From a virus (taxonomy: Duplodnaviria; Heunggongvirae; Uroviricota; Caudoviricetes), in IMG/VR virus record IMGVR_UViG_3300031133_000383, positions 346,635-410,634 of that record: a stretch of DNA of 64,000 bases. One strand, written 5' to 3'. Below are positions 28,598 through 61,603 of the stretch, piece after piece. The position numbers and the translations under genes were made by a program. The notes under the pieces were generated by a model. That model had not been told where the DNA came from. It did not search any database and saw only the letters and a list, made by a program, of their open reading frames with translations. Within the stretch, counting starts at the first letter, position 1; the number at the start of each line of letters is the position of its first letter.

Positions 28598-28750
28598 TTT
28601 TAACTGTTGAAAAGAGATGCTGTGCTAATACCAGTGTGGCAGTAGAGGTGGTGACCTATTACTTTATTGCATGATGTTAGCAGGGTTATGAAAGTCACTA
28701 TAATAGTTAAGGGTTGGTAGTAATGCATTTTCAATCTCTCTATGCATTAT
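28598..28750 (+). ncRNA. Double-pseudoknot RNA family A, copy 1
   Basis: Homologous to 28770-28930 with compensatory stems. Confidence 0.75.
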
Positions 28751-28769: not shown

Positions 28770-28930
28770 GTTTCAATTGTCGAAAAGAGATGCAGTGGTA
28801 ACACCCAAGCGGTGATAGAATTGGTGACCTATTATTTTATCACACGATGTTGCCATTAGTCAGGAAAGTCACTATAACAATTGAGACAGCAGTAGATGTG
28901 TTGTGTGCTTTAAATCTCTTTGTACACTGC
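28770..28930 (+). ncRNA. Double-pseudoknot RNA family A, copy 2
   Basis: Homologous to 28598-28750. Confidence 0.75.
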
Positions 28931-28976: not shown

Positions 28977-29065
28977 ATTTTGTTTAGGCTTGTAGCTCAG
29001 ATGGTAGAGCGGAGGGCAGAAACCCTCGCGTCGGAGATTCGATTTCTTCCTCGCCTAGACAAAAT
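28977..29065 (+). ncRNA. tRNA-like RNA with 6-nt anticodon loop (CAGAAA), extended acceptor stem, no CCA
   Basis: TAGCTCAGATGGTAGAGC D-arm, GAGGG/CCCTC stem, TTCGATT T-loop, TTTTGTTTAGGC/GCCTAGACAAAA closing stem. Confidence 0.7.
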
Positions 29066-29312: not shown

Positions 29313-29386
29313 TTCTCGTTAGTTTAACGGTAGAACAGCGGCCTCTAAAACCGTGTATGCGGGTTCGAATCCCGCACGAGGAACCA
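29313..29386 (+). tRNA. Amber tRNA (anticodon CTA)
   Basis: TTCTCGT/ACGAGGA acceptor, loop CT-CTA-AA (CTA at 29345-29347), GCGGG-TTCGAAT-CCCGC, ACCA. Confidence 0.85.
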
Positions 29387-34977: not shown

Positions 34978-35124
34978 TTTAACAGTGCAAAAAACTGTTG
35001 ACGTGTAGATGTTTTTTTGATACTATAGCTTTATTGAAACAGCGAAACAACCAGCTAAAAAGTTTTGAAAAAGATGTTGCTAAGGTTTGTGTTTTGTGTT
35101 AGAATGACAGCATGAAATGAATAC

Positions 35125-35254
35125 GGAGCCTGTCAGCGAACAGGTTGGGTGGTAGCGGTGTCGCGGGCAAGCCATCACAGTGAAAGTTACATTGATGCAG
35201 GGGTTGCATTGATTAAAACGATTGGGCGAATCGGTTTCTTTCACAACTTAATTT
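35125..35254 (+). ncRNA. Structured RNA family B, copy 1
   Basis: GGAGCC...TGATTAAAACG...AACTTAATTT; covarying hairpins vs other copies. Confidence 0.8.
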
Positions 35255-35298
35255 GATAATAGGTAGTAGTTGTTGTACTGTCTAGTTTGAAGAGATAT

Positions 35299-35428
35299 GG
35301 AGCCTGTCTACAAGCAGGTTGGGTGGTAGCGGTGTCGCGGGCGAACCATCGACGTGAAAGATTCATTGATGCGGGGAAGGCATTGATTAAAACGGTTAGG
35401 TGGACCGGCTTCTTTCACAACCTAATTT
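35299..35428 (+). ncRNA. Structured RNA family B, copy 2
   Basis: Tandem homolog ending 2 nt before tRNA-Cys. Confidence 0.8.
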
Positions 35429-38217: not shown

Positions 38218-38525
38218 TACACTTTTTCTTTCGGAGATTTTTTATGCTAAATTCTAAACAAGGCATTTTGACAGAATCAGGATTTTATTTCATGTTAAAA
38301 TTGAGTGTGCAATTAATGATTCTGTTGGCCATGACGAGACCCTTTCAGTGTTCATTAAATCTAATAAAGAGAATATGGTTGCCATTGTGACTCAACATAT
38401 CAATGGTCAGGTTGATCAAACCATTCTCCGGGGGAAAAATTCGTTAAAGGCACTTAAAAATTTTCTTTAAAAAAGCTTTGACATAAGTAAGAGATTTTGA
38501 TATACTTATCTCATTGAAGCAGACA

Positions 38526-38740
38526 AGGGGTTGAGCATCAAAGGCTCAATGATAATCCAGCGAGGTCGGGGCGTGGATTAGGTGCCAATGATGGCACAAG
38601 GTTGATTGAGGTTTGATGAGAGTCAAGCCTATGTAGAAATGGCGAAAGCCAGTTCAGTAGCGAGTACTTCAAAGCTATTATGGTTTTCAAGGAAAGTGGG
38701 TCACTCAGGTACTCCCAACTTACTCGCCAGCCCTGATTTA
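38526..38740 (+). ncRNA. Structured RNA family C, copy 1 (~215 nt)
   Basis: Homologous to 41718-41929 with compensatory changes; between promoter and tRNA-Pro. Confidence 0.8.
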
Positions 38741-38741
38741 A

Positions 38742-38819
38742 CGGAGTGTAGGTTAGTCTGGTTATACCGCTTGCTTTGGGAGCAAGATGTCGCAGGTTCA
38801 AATCCTGCCACTCCGACCA
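38742..38819 (+). tRNA. tRNA-Pro(TGG)
   Basis: CGGAGTG/CACTCCG, TT-TGG-GA, CCA. Confidence 0.95.
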
Positions 38820-38832
38820 ATTTTTGTTTTGT

Positions 38833-38911
38833 AGCGAAGTAGAGAAGTCTGGCTGTTCTCGCTAGCCTCATAAGCTAGAGATCGGGGGTTCAAATCCCTC
38901 CTTCGCATCCA
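38833..38911 (+). tRNA. tRNA-Met(CAT), 1:72 mismatch
   Basis: AGCGAAG/CTTCGCA, CT-CAT-AA, CCA. Confidence 0.9.
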
Positions 38912-39002
38912 ATTGAAAAGCTAACAGCAATGTTAGCTTTTTTTTATTCTCTTTTTTGACATAGCTAAATTTTCGTATAAAATTACAGCAGTCTATAAGG
39001 AA

Positions 39003-39497
39003 ATGTTGATGATCGAGAGGAAAGAAAACCTTACTTCACTTTTTAAATTACTTTTGTTCTTTTTTGGTTTTGCGATGTTAATTGTATCGCTATTGACCAG
39101 CTATAACTATTTACGACATATTCCACAAGATATAGGCGAATATACATATACAAATAATACATTATTTTTTAAATTAGAACCCAAAAAGTTATTCTTTATT
39201 ACACTGCCTGAATCCTTGACTGAATATGAACTCATTTTGCCGAAAGATGCTAAATTTAATACCAATGATAAACTTTCTATTGTATTCTTAAGAGGTGTAA
39301 AACCACCTCCAGAAGATTTAAAAGCAAATGCAATGTATATACGGTATCATGTTAAACCTATAGAAATCAATCCTATAAAAGAAATTAACCTTTTTGTTAA
39401 TGACACATTACAATATGATTTAAAAGATAAACTGGTCTTAAAGATAATTGATAAAGATCCTAAAACAGGTGAGGTTTCTATCTCTGTTTTCGAGTGA
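39003..39497 (+). CDS. Membrane-anchored hypothetical protein
   Basis: N-terminal TM. Confidence 0.75.
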   Translation: MLMIERKENLTSLFKLLLFFFGFAMLIVSLLTSYNYLRHIPQDIGEYTYTNNTLFFKLEPKKLFFITLPESLTEYELILPKDAKFNTNDKLSIVFLRGVKPPPEDLKANAMYIRYHVKPIEINPIKEINLFVNDTLQYDLKDKLVLKIIDKDPKTGEVSISVFE

Positions 39498-39585
39498 TTT
39501 CACTCTTTTTAATTATTTTTGCATTAAAGGACCTTCTATGTTATACTTAAATCCTTAATTAAAGCCTCTATTTGGAGAATATAGA

Positions 39586-39975
39586 ATGAATGAAAACCAA
39601 GAAAATGAGATAATTTCCGCAGAAGAATGTACGATTAACTTTGTATTTAAAGAAGAACGCATTCGTGGAACTAAGAAGTTTAAATGTGTAGTGGTTGCAG
39701 AAGATGCCGATGCACCTGATCAGGAGATTTCAGACCGTATTGAAGCTTCTAGTTGGGCAGTTATGAAACAAACCTATCCTACTTTAAAGGATTTGGTTGA
39801 GCATATGTTTTGGTCTGAAAACTGGCAGGTTTGTGGTCATGGGCATGATGAACGTTATCTTATTCTGACAGGATGCTCTGGTCATGAGGGTATTTATGAC
39901 TATGTAGAAGGTGATGACATTCGGGTTCTTTGGTCAGATATCAAAGAAAATGATATTGTTTACCCAAAAGAGTAG
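39586..39975 (+). CDS. Hypothetical protein
   Basis: GGAG RBS; ends TAG. Confidence 0.8.
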   Translation: MNENQENEIISAEECTINFVFKEERIRGTKKFKCVVVAEDADAPDQEISDRIEASSWAVMKQTYPTLKDLVEHMFWSENWQVCGHGHDERYLILTGCSGHEGIYDYVEGDDIRVLWSDIKENDIVYPKE

Positions 39976-40029
39976 AATTTTTTTTGTGGTTTTGATATAC
40001 TTCAACAAATCTCAAATAGGAGTCATCTA

Positions 40030-40452
40030 ATGACTGTTAGTACGCAAGAAGAAATTAATGTATTGATGGCTGAATGTTCGAAACTTGAATCTCAGTTGCG
40101 GGCGAAGCGTGAAGCCCTTGAAATGGCTGTCATAAGCAAATTGACTGCCGATGGCAAGCAGCATCCGTTGTCTTCATTTTTGGGAAAGGTTGCCACCTAT
40201 GACCGTCCTCATAAATGGCAAGACCCTAGTTCGTCTGTATTGACCGAAGATGATTTGAAGAATTACAGCTATCTCAGTTTTAATGGCATTGTAACAGGTG
40301 CTCAGGTTAACTCCTTGTATCATGAGCCTCGATATGACGATAATGACACCTTTTATAGTTTTGCCATTGCAGAAGAATGGTCAGAAATTCCGAAGGGTCA
40401 TTACATTCCGATTGAAGAAGTGTATGAGATGTTGATTTTTAAAATACAATAA
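40030..40452 (+). CDS. Hypothetical protein
   Basis: AGGAG RBS. Confidence 0.8.
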   Translation: MTVSTQEEINVLMAECSKLESQLRAKREALEMAVISKLTADGKQHPLSSFLGKVATYDRPHKWQDPSSSVLTEDDLKNYSYLSFNGIVTGAQVNSLYHEPRYDDNDTFYSFAIAEEWSEIPKGHYIPIEEVYEMLIFKIQ

Positions 40453-40644
40453 ATAGCAGATAAGAGAATATCAAATACTGCGAATTGGTTTGATGGTGTG
40501 TTCTAAATAAAAGCTGAAGAAGCTTTATCTTATCAATGTTTAATTAGTCATTTTTAAATCAATAAATAAAACTTTATGTATGTCATTTATTGATTTTTTT
40601 GTAATTTATGTTATATTCTATACAACAAATAAAGAGGATATTCT

Positions 40645-40959
40645 ATGTCTAATGTTTCCCAAGCCACTTCCAACTTCCAGCAAAAATTCAGTCCAGAAGC
40701 TGCAAAAGGACTTGATGTTGTTTTTCAATTTAATATCAGTGATGCTGATAATTTTTACCTTGTTATAAAAGATAGTATCTGTACCCTTGTAGAAGGTGAT
40801 AATGAAGATGCAAATGTTGTCTTGGTGGCAGATTCTCAAACATTGCTAGATTTATCTGATGGTAGTCTTGATGGCATGCAAGCTTTTATGGCGGGTAAAC
40901 TTCGTATCGAAGGGGATATGATGTTGTCAATGAAACTTCATGAACTTTTCCCTGTTTAA
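40645..40959 (+). CDS. SCP2 sterol/lipid-binding domain protein
   Basis: F.PEAAKGLDVVFQF...LDGMQAFMAGKLRIEGDMML. Confidence 0.9.
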   Translation: MSNVSQATSNFQQKFSPEAAKGLDVVFQFNISDADNFYLVIKDSICTLVEGDNEDANVVLVADSQTLLDLSDGSLDGMQAFMAGKLRIEGDMMLSMKLHELFPV

Positions 40960-40973
40960 AGGAGTTTCTTGCC

Positions 40974-41501
40974 ATGTCCTTACCTTATGTTGCTCCTTTG
41001 GACAGGGTTTTCTTTTTGACAGCTACTAACGAACTTAATACTATAAAAGAGTCAAAAGATAGAATGGAGCAAATTCAGAAACGAGCTTTATATGTTTTTG
41101 ACAAGATTGCTGAAATCTATGATCGTTCTTATTCGTGGGTTACTTATGACAACTGCAATCTTGAAATTGAAGGTTCGGCAGGTAAATATGACTATGAGCG
41201 TTATCTTGAAGAATTCAAGTTTTATAGTGACCTCGATGATGCTGAATACCTTAATCGTATCATTCCTCTTTATTATAACAGTTTTCCATCTCGTTTTATT
41301 TATACTGATTTTGAAGATGAAGTCACTGCTGAACTTCAAGAATTTAAAAACAATGCTGATAAAAAACGTCAGAAATCAAAAGACAAACGTGAACGTCTTA
41401 AAAAAAGAGAGATTGAGCGAGCGAAGATCAGGCCAGACATCATCACGTCTATTACCGCTAAATTAACAGAAGAAGAACTTTCTTTTATTCTATTCAAATA
41501 A
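40974..41501 (+). CDS. Hypothetical protein with C-terminal coiled coil (AKLTEEE)
   Basis: AAGGAG RBS. Confidence 0.8.
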   Translation: MSLPYVAPLDRVFFLTATNELNTIKESKDRMEQIQKRALYVFDKIAEIYDRSYSWVTYDNCNLEIEGSAGKYDYERYLEEFKFYSDLDDAEYLNRIIPLYYNSFPSRFIYTDFEDEVTAELQEFKNNADKKRQKSKDKRERLKKREIERAKIRPDIITSITAKLTEEELSFILFK

Positions 41502-41717
41502 TTTGCAAAAAAAATTAAGAAAGAGTTGCAGTCTATCGTTTTTTGTTGTAGAATAGCCTCATTGAAAAGAAGACATCTGCAAGCGGCTTGAACCGTTGGA
41601 AGAAAGAGGAAAGGCTAACCATCCTACTTGCATGTTTATGATATAATTTTCAAAATTCTAAAAAAACGTTTGACATCTGAAATGAGTTTTGATATAGTTA
41701 TCTCATTGAAACAAATA

Positions 41718-41929
41718 AGGGATTGAGTGTTTAAGGCTCAATGTTAATTCAGTGTGGTCGGGGCGTGAATTAAGTGCTAGTGGCACATGGTTAATTGAAG
41801 CTTGATAAAATCAAGCTTATGTAGAAATGGCGAAAGCCAGTTCAGTAGCGAGTCCTTTAAAGCCCGTTTTGGTTTTCAAGGAAAGTGGGTCACTCAGGCA
41901 ATCCCATCTTACTCGTCAGTCCTGATTTA
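41718..41929 (+). ncRNA. Structured RNA family C, copy 2
   Basis: Homologous to 38526-38740; between promoter and tRNA-Asn. Confidence 0.8.
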
Positions 41930-41931
41930 AT

Positions 41932-42007
41932 TGGTAAATAGCTCAGTCGGTAGAGCAGGTGACTGTTAATCACCGGGTCGTAGGTTCGAGTCCTACTTTA
42001 CCAGCCA
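41932..42007 (+). tRNA. tRNA-Asn(GTT)
   Basis: TGGTAAA/TTTACCA, CT-GTT-AA, G73, CCA. Confidence 0.95.
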
Positions 42008-42034: not shown

Positions 42035-42247
42035 ATGAGCAGATCGGTCAGAGGTTCTAAGGGTAGTGGTTACGACTACTGGGGCAAACGTGCAAAGAGT
42101 TGTTGTTCACCCGGTCGTGTCAATAAGAAGTTGACGTTGGGTATTGAAAGAATGCGTGAACATCAACTGGTATCGTATGAACTTGATCTTGTTGCTGATG
42201 TTCATAACCACTTTGAACACGAAGTTCAAGTACTTAAAGTTTTGTAA
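42035..42247 (+). CDS. Small basic protein inside tRNA operon (MSRSVRGSKGSGYDYW)
   Basis: ORF between tRNA-Asn and tRNA-Met. Confidence 0.7.
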   Translation: MSRSVRGSKGSGYDYWGKRAKSCCSPGRVNKKLTLGIERMREHQLVSYELDLVADVHNHFEHEVQVLKVL

Positions 42248-42262
42248 TTTAAAATGTTTTGA

Positions 42263-42339
42263 AGCGGGGTAGAGAAGCCCGGTAACTCACCAGTCTCATA
42301 AGCTGGAGATCGCAGGTTCAAATCCTGCCCCCGCAACCA
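42263..42339 (+). tRNA. tRNA-Met(CAT), initiator-like acceptor
   Basis: AGCGGGG/CCCCGCA with 1:72 mismatch, CT-CAT-AA, ACCA. Confidence 0.9.
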
Positions 42340-42438
42340 CTTCGGACACCTAGCGTGTCCACCTGTGAAGAACAACACAGAGGCGATTTAGCCTGAATCA
42401 AACGACTGTGAGTAAACACAGTTTTTAAAAATCATTAT

Positions 42439-42514
<76 letters not shown>

Positions 42515-42527
42515 GATTTGTAGTTTT

Positions 42528-42603
42528 GTCCTTTGTAGCTCAGATGGTAGAGCGGGCGTTAGAAGACGCCGCGTCATAGGTTCGATTCCTATCGGGGACA
42601 CCA
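42528..42603 (+). ncRNA. tRNA-like RNA with 6-nt anticodon loop (TAGAAG), bulged acceptor stem, encoded CCA
   Basis: GTCCTTTG/CGGGGAC, GGCGT-TAGAAG-ACGCC, ATAGG-TTCGATT-CCTAT, ACCA. Confidence 0.75.
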
Positions 42604-42609
42604 TTTAGA

Positions 42610-42637
42610 AACCATGCTTCGGCATGGTTTTTTGCTT
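42610..42637 (+). terminator. Intrinsic terminator, identical to 44212-44239
   Basis: AACCATGC-TTCG-GCATGGTTTTTT. Confidence 0.85.
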
Positions 42638-46414: not shown

Positions 46415-46577
46415 GGAGCCTGCGTGAAAGTGGGTTGGGTAGCAGCGGTGTTGCGGGCGAGCTACTACGAAGAGTGAGTCAGAAGCTGTGATTCCTCTTC
46501 ATGGGAATGGAGAATTGAAGTGTTGTTGGCTTTGATTAAAACGGCTGGGTGAGTCGGCTCCTTCCCAAACCTAATTT
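46415..46577 (+). ncRNA. Structured RNA family B, copy 3 (expanded central insert)
   Basis: GGAGCC...TGATTAAAACG...AACCTAATTT; own promoter. Confidence 0.75.
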
Positions 46578-46984
46578 AGTTGGAGTTGCTGGTTAATGTA
46601 TAGCTATTATACAAACGGTGACTCTTGATATGGTTAAGAGTGATGTAGTTTCCACTATACAACAGCGGGCAGAAATGGATAGTTGTCATCATACTGTACC
46701 CAATTAAAGAGCAATACCTACTGCAATAGAGACTGGGCTTTTGTAGTAGCAATTAGAATCCATCTCAGCAGATAGAGTGGAGCGATAGGCGTTATTTGAC
46801 CTTGACCTTTGAAGCGATGACATCTTGGTGGCTTGGTGGTGAAAAGTAACCACATATATTAAAGCAATCTGTTCAAAACAGGTTGCTTTTTTTTATAAAA
46901 ATCATAGTTAATTGTTAGTTTTCTTGTTTTTATTTTCTGCTTATGGTATAATCAATTTCCAATCTCTTACTAGGATTACTTATT

Positions 46985-61048: not shown

Positions 61049-61603
61049 AATACTTGAAATGATTTCTTTTTATGCTATAATTACTCATACATAAATTGAA
61101 GGCATCATGACAATGATTGTGTTGCCTAATGAGTGGAATCCATAGGAATATCAGTTTTAGCAGACCGTTTCTGTCCTATGGTTAAAAAATGGAATGTTGT
61201 TGTTCAAGTTTGCCTTTTTTCTTGTCCAACAGTTTACTATCTGGCACAATAATATTAGCCTTAAAAATCTGCAGTGATAGCATTGTATTTCAGGAGGCTA
61301 TCATGTTTTTTTCAGTTATCTACTTGAATCAACAAGATTAGATGCTATACTGACTGGAAAGTTTAATGCTGGTTGTTCCACCAATCAGTACCGAACGTCA
61401 GGTCTATATTAAATGGCAGAGTATCGCCGCCTGATCTCTTTTTTATGATGAAAGGCATCTTGGACTTCGGTTCTGGATTAAAACGGTTGGGTGAACTGGC
61501 CTTTTATCTCATTCTTCTAACCATAAGTGTCACTACTTATGGTTTTTTTATTGCTTATTTTTTTGTTTTTTGATACACTCTCATTATCTAATTTGAGGAT
61601 ACC

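Follow-up and report, generated by a model that had tools for sequence, protein, structure and literature searches.

Huge phages are rich in tRNA genes, and the RNAs embedded among those genes are almost unstudied. Our subject is one such RNA, a non-coding segment of ~215 nucleotides (nt) that occurs twice, as diverged paralogues, at the head of two tRNA operons. The DNA in question is a 64,000-nt stretch, which we call the window, comprising bases 346635-410634 of the 437,043-base pair (bp) IMG/VR virus record IMGVR_UViG_3300031133_000383. The record has a guanine-plus-cytosine (GC) content of 30.9%, 26 tRNA genes and the standard genetic code. Its nearest named kin are the Xanthomonas jumbo phages XacN1 and Xoo-sp13 (~45% identity over one 778-amino-acid protein), and XacN1 has been noted for its 56 tRNA genes (PMC5852040). 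The two operons are laid out as follows, in window coordinates, which we use throughout unless another contig is named.

38478..38506, + strand: operon 1 promoter, TTGACA-17-TATACT with an extended -10 TG; start predicted from the spacing to lie near A38513
38526..38741, + strand: RNA copy 1, with the single-stranded tail UGAUUUAA ending at 38741
38742..38819, + strand: tRNA-Pro(UGG), whose 5' end would set the 3' end of RNA copy 1
38833..38911, + strand: tRNA-Met, the ancestral first gene of operon 1
38915..38942, + strand: intrinsic terminator closing operon 1
41670..41698, + strand: operon 2 promoter, TTGACA-17-TATAGT with TG; duplicate of the operon 1 promoter plus leader
41718..41931, + strand: RNA copy 2, with the same nine helices as copy 1 and the tail UGAUUUAAU
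41932..42007, + strand: tRNA-Asn(GUU), whose 5' end would set the 3' end of RNA copy 2
42035..42633, + strand: remainder of operon 2, namely a 70-amino-acid open reading frame (ORF), tRNA-Met, tRNA-Thr, a tRNA-like gene with an 8-nt anticodon loop, and a terminator hairpin (AACCATGC-TTCG-GCATGGTT, then Ts)

BLAST aligns the two copies over their full length, with 84% identity over 215 nt and five gap columns. Each extends to the base preceding its tRNA, since tRNA-Pro begins at 38742 and tRNA-Asn at 41932; this agrees with the placement given in a preliminary description of the window, made from its letters alone. The long identical tracts mentioned there are all present in the alignment and measure 12, 36 and 28 nt. 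Both segments have a GC content of 42-48% vs ~31% genome-wide. The TTGACA promoter reported ahead of each copy proved to be near-consensus in both cases, with 11 of 12 consensus positions and the shared form TTGACA-17-TGnTATAnT. Neither operon has a terminator-like site between the RNA and the tRNA. Judged by the strength of the promoters, both RNAs are likely to be expressed. Four separate promoters of this phage also share CTCATTGAA where transcription is predicted to start (16391, 38510, 41558 and 41702), and this motif may be a promoter-class or start-site signature.

Set against shuffled sequences, the folding of the two copies gives z scores of -3.3 and -3.6. From helices on which folding energy and the comparison of the copies agree, we built a model with nine helices and 57 pairs. 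For copy 1 it reads:

38527-38530/38731-38734, + strand: P1a, closing the molecule
38531-38536/38544-38549, + strand: H1, hairpin
38553-38559/38574-38580, + strand: H2, hairpin
38582-38585/38594-38597, + strand: H3, hairpin
38609-38617/38622-38630, + strand: H4, hairpin
38636-38643/38648-38655, + strand: H5, hairpin with a GAAA loop
38660-38665/38722-38727, + strand: H6a, part of the 3' three-way junction
38667-38676/38683-38691, + strand: H7, part of the 3' three-way junction
38694-38700/38714-38721, + strand: H8, part of the 3' three-way junction

All 57 pairs are standard in both copies. Thirty substitutions separate the copies and none of them breaks a pair; of the 114 paired positions 10 differ, as against 20 of the 90 unpaired positions (9% vs 22%). 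The helices contain three double compensatory changes (G-C to A-U in P1a and H4, C-G to U-A in H2) and four one-sided changes that preserve the pair (G-C/G-U or A-U/G-U). Placed at random, the same 30 substitutions broke a mean of 9.8 pairs, and in none of 20,000 trials was every pair left intact. Because the nine-helix model had been chosen with both copies in view, we repeated the test using each copy's own minimum free energy (MFE) fold as the model. Here 3-4 pairs were broken vs 10-11 expected, with P ~0.004 in both directions. The element is a non-coding, multi-helix RNA whose copies have diverged while preserving their structure, and the earlier claim of a structure-constrained RNA between promoter and first tRNA holds.

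The particular stems put forward in the preliminary description fared unevenly. TAATCCA/TGGATTA and AGGTTTGAT/GTCAAGCCT are both confirmed, each with a compensatory change. GGGTTG/CAGCCC does covary (G-C to A-U), but it can be assigned as 4 bp and not 6 because its TTG is shared with a stronger hairpin, TTGAGC/GCTCAA. The stem GTGCCA/TGGCAC, which becomes GTGCTA/TGGCAC in copy 2, cannot have 6 bp there, since the loop would shrink to 1 nt; what survives is a 4-bp stem with a 5-nt loop. The TGGC-GAAA-GCCA hairpin, said to be invariant, is identical in both window copies, but copy 1 of a sister strain, L050, reads UAAA, so the GNRA loop is not strictly invariant. The H2 loop and the 3' tail are unchanged between copy 1 and copy 2.

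Could this be a known RNA? We searched Rfam 15 with Infernal at the gathering threshold and at expectation values (E) up to 10, using the 3.7-kb region and each copy alone. Only tRNAs and noise came back, and no catalogued family claims the RNA. At E<=10 there was no match to the RNase P models (RF00010, RF00011, RF00373, RF00009 and RF02357), to the self-cleaving ribozymes (hammerhead, twister, twister-sister, pistol, hatchet, HDV-like and others), to GOLLD (RF01998) or ROOL (RF03087), or to riboswitch and T-box models. A riboswitch or T-box leader also lacks an expression platform here: the tRNA starts right after the tail. A group I intron was rejected as well: there was no RF00028 match, the insert includes tRNA-Pro in full, and copy 2 stands in place of 88 nt instead of splitting them. 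With distant-mode blastn the RNA had no match among 50,697 phage records, and similarity to E. coli genomes, including stable RNAs and rRNA, was limited to chance 21-mers.

The resemblance to RNase P RNA deserves its own account. The GGAAAGU and CUUA strands of the RNA form a bulged helix, a second helix comes after it, the elements stand in the order P2-P3-P4-P4'-P2', and the RNA adjoins an RNase P cleavage site. In RNase P RNA, P4 is a long-range helix, and its strands, CR-I and CR-V, enclose P5-P18 and the catalytic junctions. Here the P4-like helix AAGUGGG/CCCAnCUU is the stem of a local hairpin, its loop 13 nt long, within a three-way junction of ~70 nt. Being neither long-range nor wrapped around a catalytic core, it was rejected as P4, and no counterpart of CR-IV, J5/15, P15 or the specificity domain can be placed in the RNA. 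The preliminary description had seen the likeness and judged that it did not fit; the absence of any model match and the local helix bear that out.

The history of the locus can be read from a syntenic relative, L067 (JGI 3300034157, contig Ga0370506_000001). The contig has a listed length of 1,917,244 bp, and an aminoacyl-tRNA synthetase, numerous tRNAs and phage-like genes lie close to the syntenic region. In L067 the operon 1 promoter and its TATCTCATTGAA leader are conserved and run straight into tRNA-Met, the leader being 20 nt long. Promoter, -10 region and the leader sequence TATCTCATTGAAACA are all kept, tRNA-Met follows 7 nt on, and there is no such RNA. Relative to L067, window positions 38522-38826, which hold the RNA and tRNA-Pro, are inserted between the leader and the same tRNA-Met. 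Because promoter and leader meet tRNA-Met directly in L067, we read the RNA plus tRNA-Pro as a lineage-specific insertion. The promoter of copy 2 (41657-41713) aligns to the same tRNA-Met promoter of L067 at 84%, which argues that promoter, leader and RNA were later duplicated as one block before tRNA-Asn. At tRNA-Asn the duplicated block replaces an 88-nt segment still carried by L067 and by a second relative, L075. Despite their differing tRNAs, both copies end precisely at tRNA +1. The insertion borders show no clear target-site duplication of the kind a mobile element leaves.

Two features of the surrounding DNA belong beside this history. Just upstream of the copy 2 promoter lies a small transcription unit (41526-41632; L067 4877-4957; L075 ~1655-1760), with a TTGCAG-17-TAGAAT promoter, an CCTCATTGAA start and a ~55-nt hairpin RNA (GCAAGCGG...CTACTTGC) with a purine-rich loop. 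It is 81% conserved in the relatives without the two-copy RNA, where the 88-nt segment and then tRNA-Asn follow. Upstream of operon 1, 38244-38470 is the remnant of a gene 145 amino acids long in L067; residues 1-17 and 86-146 are recognisable, in different frames, and ~204 nt between them are missing.

How far does the RNA extend beyond this phage? We made a covariance model, R1, from the two copies. BLAST and R1 found just copies 1 and 2 in the 437-kb genome. R1 had no match in XacN1, Xoo-sp13 or eight related IMG/VR records. Exact and degenerate motif scans gave no homologue in viral contigs, none in metagenome contigs (17 chance matches) and none in species genomes (2 chance matches). Homologues of the 102-amino-acid gene that precedes copy 1, at 59-88% identity, lie on contigs syntenic with the window. 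Among the contigs reached through neighbouring proteins, R1, also with its filters off, found the RNA only in L021 and L050, two near-identical strains. The Logan contig L021 ends inside the 36-nt identical tract, and its copy 2 is the same as in the window. L050 is 98.8% identical to the window over 11 kb; its copy 2 is identical, and its copy 1 carries two base differences, one of them converting GAAA to UAAA. Syntenic relatives at 77-86% amino-acid identity lack the RNA by R1, again with the filters off included. The word family, used in the preliminary description, thus fits in that there are two diverged paralogues, but they belong to a single phage lineage, and structural conservation among independent homologues cannot be invoked because the syntenic relatives are without the RNA.

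What might such an RNA be for? We lean, with modest confidence, toward a highly expressed structured RNA that is released by RNase P and acts in trans. The reasoning starts from the shared architecture of the two copies, each preceded by a very strong promoter and followed directly by a tRNA. The sigma-70-type promoter would start a transcript ~13 nt ahead of the fold, and the transcript would read on, no terminator intervening, past the conserved UGAUUUAA tail into the adjoining tRNA. All pre-tRNAs are cut at +1 by RNase P. Since the tRNA starts directly after the tail, the host enzyme, cutting at the tRNA 5' end, would free a discrete RNA of ~228 nt that starts with a triphosphate and has its 3' hydroxyl at a defined place, with no need of a terminator. 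The freed RNA could then act in trans on some factor of the host or of the phage, as a folded scaffold or as a decoy, and the tRNA would serve it only as a 3'-end-forming device. We infer the transcription start, the release by RNase P, the stability of the freed RNA and its action in trans. Duplication of the cassette with its promoter, and the exact ends at tRNA +1, fit selection for high expression and tRNA-dependent 3' ends. Elsewhere in this genome the leader of a first tRNA is in most cases short and AT-rich (GC 0.17-0.24). Given such leaders, and an ancestral operon that runs without the RNA, the fold can be no general requirement for tRNA production, and the RNA seems not to be needed in cis for its tRNAs.

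Several points weigh against this trans-acting RNA. Cleaved 5' leaders are mostly degraded. We found no partner, target complementarity or homologue that would indicate a role in trans, and a scan for antisense targets of the invariant loops in the phage genome turned up no notable complement. An RNA restricted to one lineage could be young and weakly selected. Independent sequences number just two, the sister strains being 98.8% identical; in a per-pair covariation control by shuffling, two sequences reach 61/500 at best, which falls short of significance, and because of that limit the case for structure rests on the missing disruptive changes and not on formal covariation. The fold of the 3' tail is ambiguous too. 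Its 3' strand, CAG(C/U)CCUGAUU, has competing partners: P1a (GGG(G/A) with (C/U)CCU) plus H2 on the one hand, the H2 loop on the other. In the MFE fold the tail pairs with GGUCGGGGC, the invariant loop of H2, at the expense of P1a and H2, and the fold with P1a and H2 that covariation supports is only 3.3-4.5 kcal/mol worse. Both pairings could be real, as a pseudoknot or a switch.

A purely cis-acting leader, whose fold works only on its own transcript, is a possibility we regard as unlikely. Such a leader might act by antitermination, by aiding or timing tRNA processing, or as a fold switch at the RNase P site, in which P1a plus H2 and the loop-tail helix leave the leader at that site free or sequestered. 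The RNA does come directly after the transcription start in both operons, the tail next to the cleavage site takes part in both of the near-isoenergetic pairings, and tail and H2 loop are both invariant between the copies. Yet the ancestral L067 operon has the same promoter and a 20-nt leader with no such RNA, most other tRNA operons of the genome make do with short unstructured leaders, and the RNA is not separated from the tRNA by a terminator or other expression platform. Size is also against it. The putL and putR RNAs of phage HK022 are two paralogous structured RNAs just downstream of strong early promoters; put RNAs are ~70 nt with two hairpins, make RNA polymerase resistant to termination and serve long protein-coding operons. 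With 215 nt and nine helices, the RNA studied here far exceeds what known antitermination RNAs need. It is three times the size of a put RNA and stands before short tRNA operons, which relatives run without it.

The RNA might also have little or no function: a foreign structured RNA that arrived with tRNA-Pro, was copied once by recombination and is a harmless, near-neutral passenger. Its confinement to one lineage, with syntenic relatives (77-86% amino-acid identity) lacking it, its insertion together with tRNA-Pro and the GNRA loop polymorphism in the sister strain would all suit that account. We nevertheless think it improbable. Divergence of 16% with zero broken pairs, and substitutions favouring unpaired over paired positions (22% vs 9%), point to purifying selection on the fold after duplication; three long invariant tracts have been retained, and the second copy still has a strong promoter of its own and stands where another leader segment used to be. 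A ribozyme is very unlikely. It would cleave itself from the tRNA or catalyse some other processing, as a minimal cis analogue of RNase P or as a new class. The complex multi-helix fold with invariant junctions invites the idea, as do the exact abutment on the tRNA cleavage site, the GGAAAGU ... CUUA strands flanking a bulged helix and recalling those of P4, and a GGU in an invariant loop. Against it, no RNase P or self-cleaving family matches at E up to 10, single copies included, the P4-like helix is local, closing a 13-nt loop and no catalytic core, and relatives need no more than host RNase P for the same tRNAs. Nor does complementarity between loop and tRNA favour it. The GGUCGGGG loop of H2 has an 8-bp match to the 3' end of tRNA-Pro, which we rejected as chance: shuffled loops equal it in 980/2000 cases, other tRNAs beat tRNA-Pro, and tRNA-Asn is among the worst. 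The preliminary description had suggested a test of whether the RNA cleaves itself from, or processes, the downstream tRNA, and computation gives such activity no support. Taken broadly, as a tRNA-directed RNA of a new class, whether a cis-acting catalytic or gating module that times tRNA maturation through its two competing folds or a ribozyme making the cut, the idea is still very unlikely; its whole case consists of the exact tRNA abutment, the invariant loop and tail, and the near-equal fold energies. Least credible of all is a small peptide, encoded by a 10-codon ORF from 38549 or a GTG frame at 38696. The 10-codon frame is open in both copies, but all four differences within it alter an amino acid or the stop codon, no ribosome-binding site is convincing, longer frames enter the tRNA and are not common to both copies, and the substitutions track base pairing and not codon position. 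An alternative genetic code as the cause of short ORFs was likewise unsupported.

The trans-acting RNA that we prefer would have company among phages. The tRNA cluster of T4 has RNA C and RNA D at its distal end; unlike them, the RNA studied here is a 5' leader abutting the first tRNA, is larger and exists as two diverged copies. The likeness is that both are phage-encoded, non-coding and transcribed with or next to phage tRNAs, the T4 RNAs being stable products of the tRNA region whose roles are still unknown (PMC3014915; PMC9697503). In the blastn search of the 50,697 phage records there was no sequence similarity between the RNA studied here and T4 RNA C or D. GOLLD and ROOL RNAs are often found beside tRNAs and in phages or prophages (PMC5737381). 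They too are complex multi-helix RNAs adjacent to tRNAs in phage DNA, a likeness of context and not of homology; at ~800 nt and ~580 nt they are much longer than the 215 nt here, and they are widespread across phyla whereas this RNA is found in one phage lineage. The likeness to T4 RNA C and D, GOLLD and ROOL is in kind only, with no homology. Seen at the level of DNA, the genomic arrangement fits the kind of non-coding RNA that is co-transcribed with phage tRNAs. What is new is a structured non-coding RNA matching no catalogued family; the kind, stable RNAs made with phage tRNAs, was already known.

The locus offers a clean, datable case in which a folded RNA has been inserted between a promoter and a tRNA and then copied, promoter included. 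By analogy with T4 RNA C and D, it suggests that phages may use tRNA genes as built-in 3'-end processing signals for abundant non-coding RNAs. If the RNA proves stable, it would make a compact 215-nt subject for structure determination and for partner hunting.

The same genome has at least two more repeated non-coding RNA families. One is a tandem pair at 35121-35254 and 35295-35428 (83% identity), with partial copies at 46514-46578 and 61476-61505; its second copy ends 2 nt before tRNA-Cys (35431), and the leader of tRNA-Cys is GC-rich as well. The other, with copies at 28598-28678 and 28771-28851 that are 77% identical, has tRNA-Leu on one side and a weak tRNA-like match (28986-29057) on the other. 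In a more distant relative, L020 (49% identity on the 175-amino-acid neighbour), GC-rich spacers likewise separate the tRNAs of its arrays (686-860 and 1494-1685); by motif scan and by R1 with filters off, they are unrelated to the two-copy RNA.

There are oddities among the tRNA genes and their neighbours as well. The tRNA-like gene at the end of operon 2 (42528-42603), to which ARAGORN gives the 8-nt anticodon loop, has a paralogue in the weak match at 28986-29057, seen by Rfam only. The tRNA at 29313-29386 has a CUA, amber-reading anticodon, though the genome appears to use the standard code. The basic 70-amino-acid ORF within operon 2 (42035-42247) is only 86% identical in a strain whose DNA overall is 98.8% identical, and we therefore regard it as locally hypervariable. 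Its relatives at 76-79% identity likewise stand right after a tRNA, and distant homologues occur in the head-tail modules of unrelated siphovirus-like contigs. As to the host, the phage encodes a full-length DnaK (L013; G000:C1:182807-184708) that is 73% identical to Pseudomonas-type DnaK and 66% identical to that of Salmonella, a hint that the host may be gammaproteobacterial.

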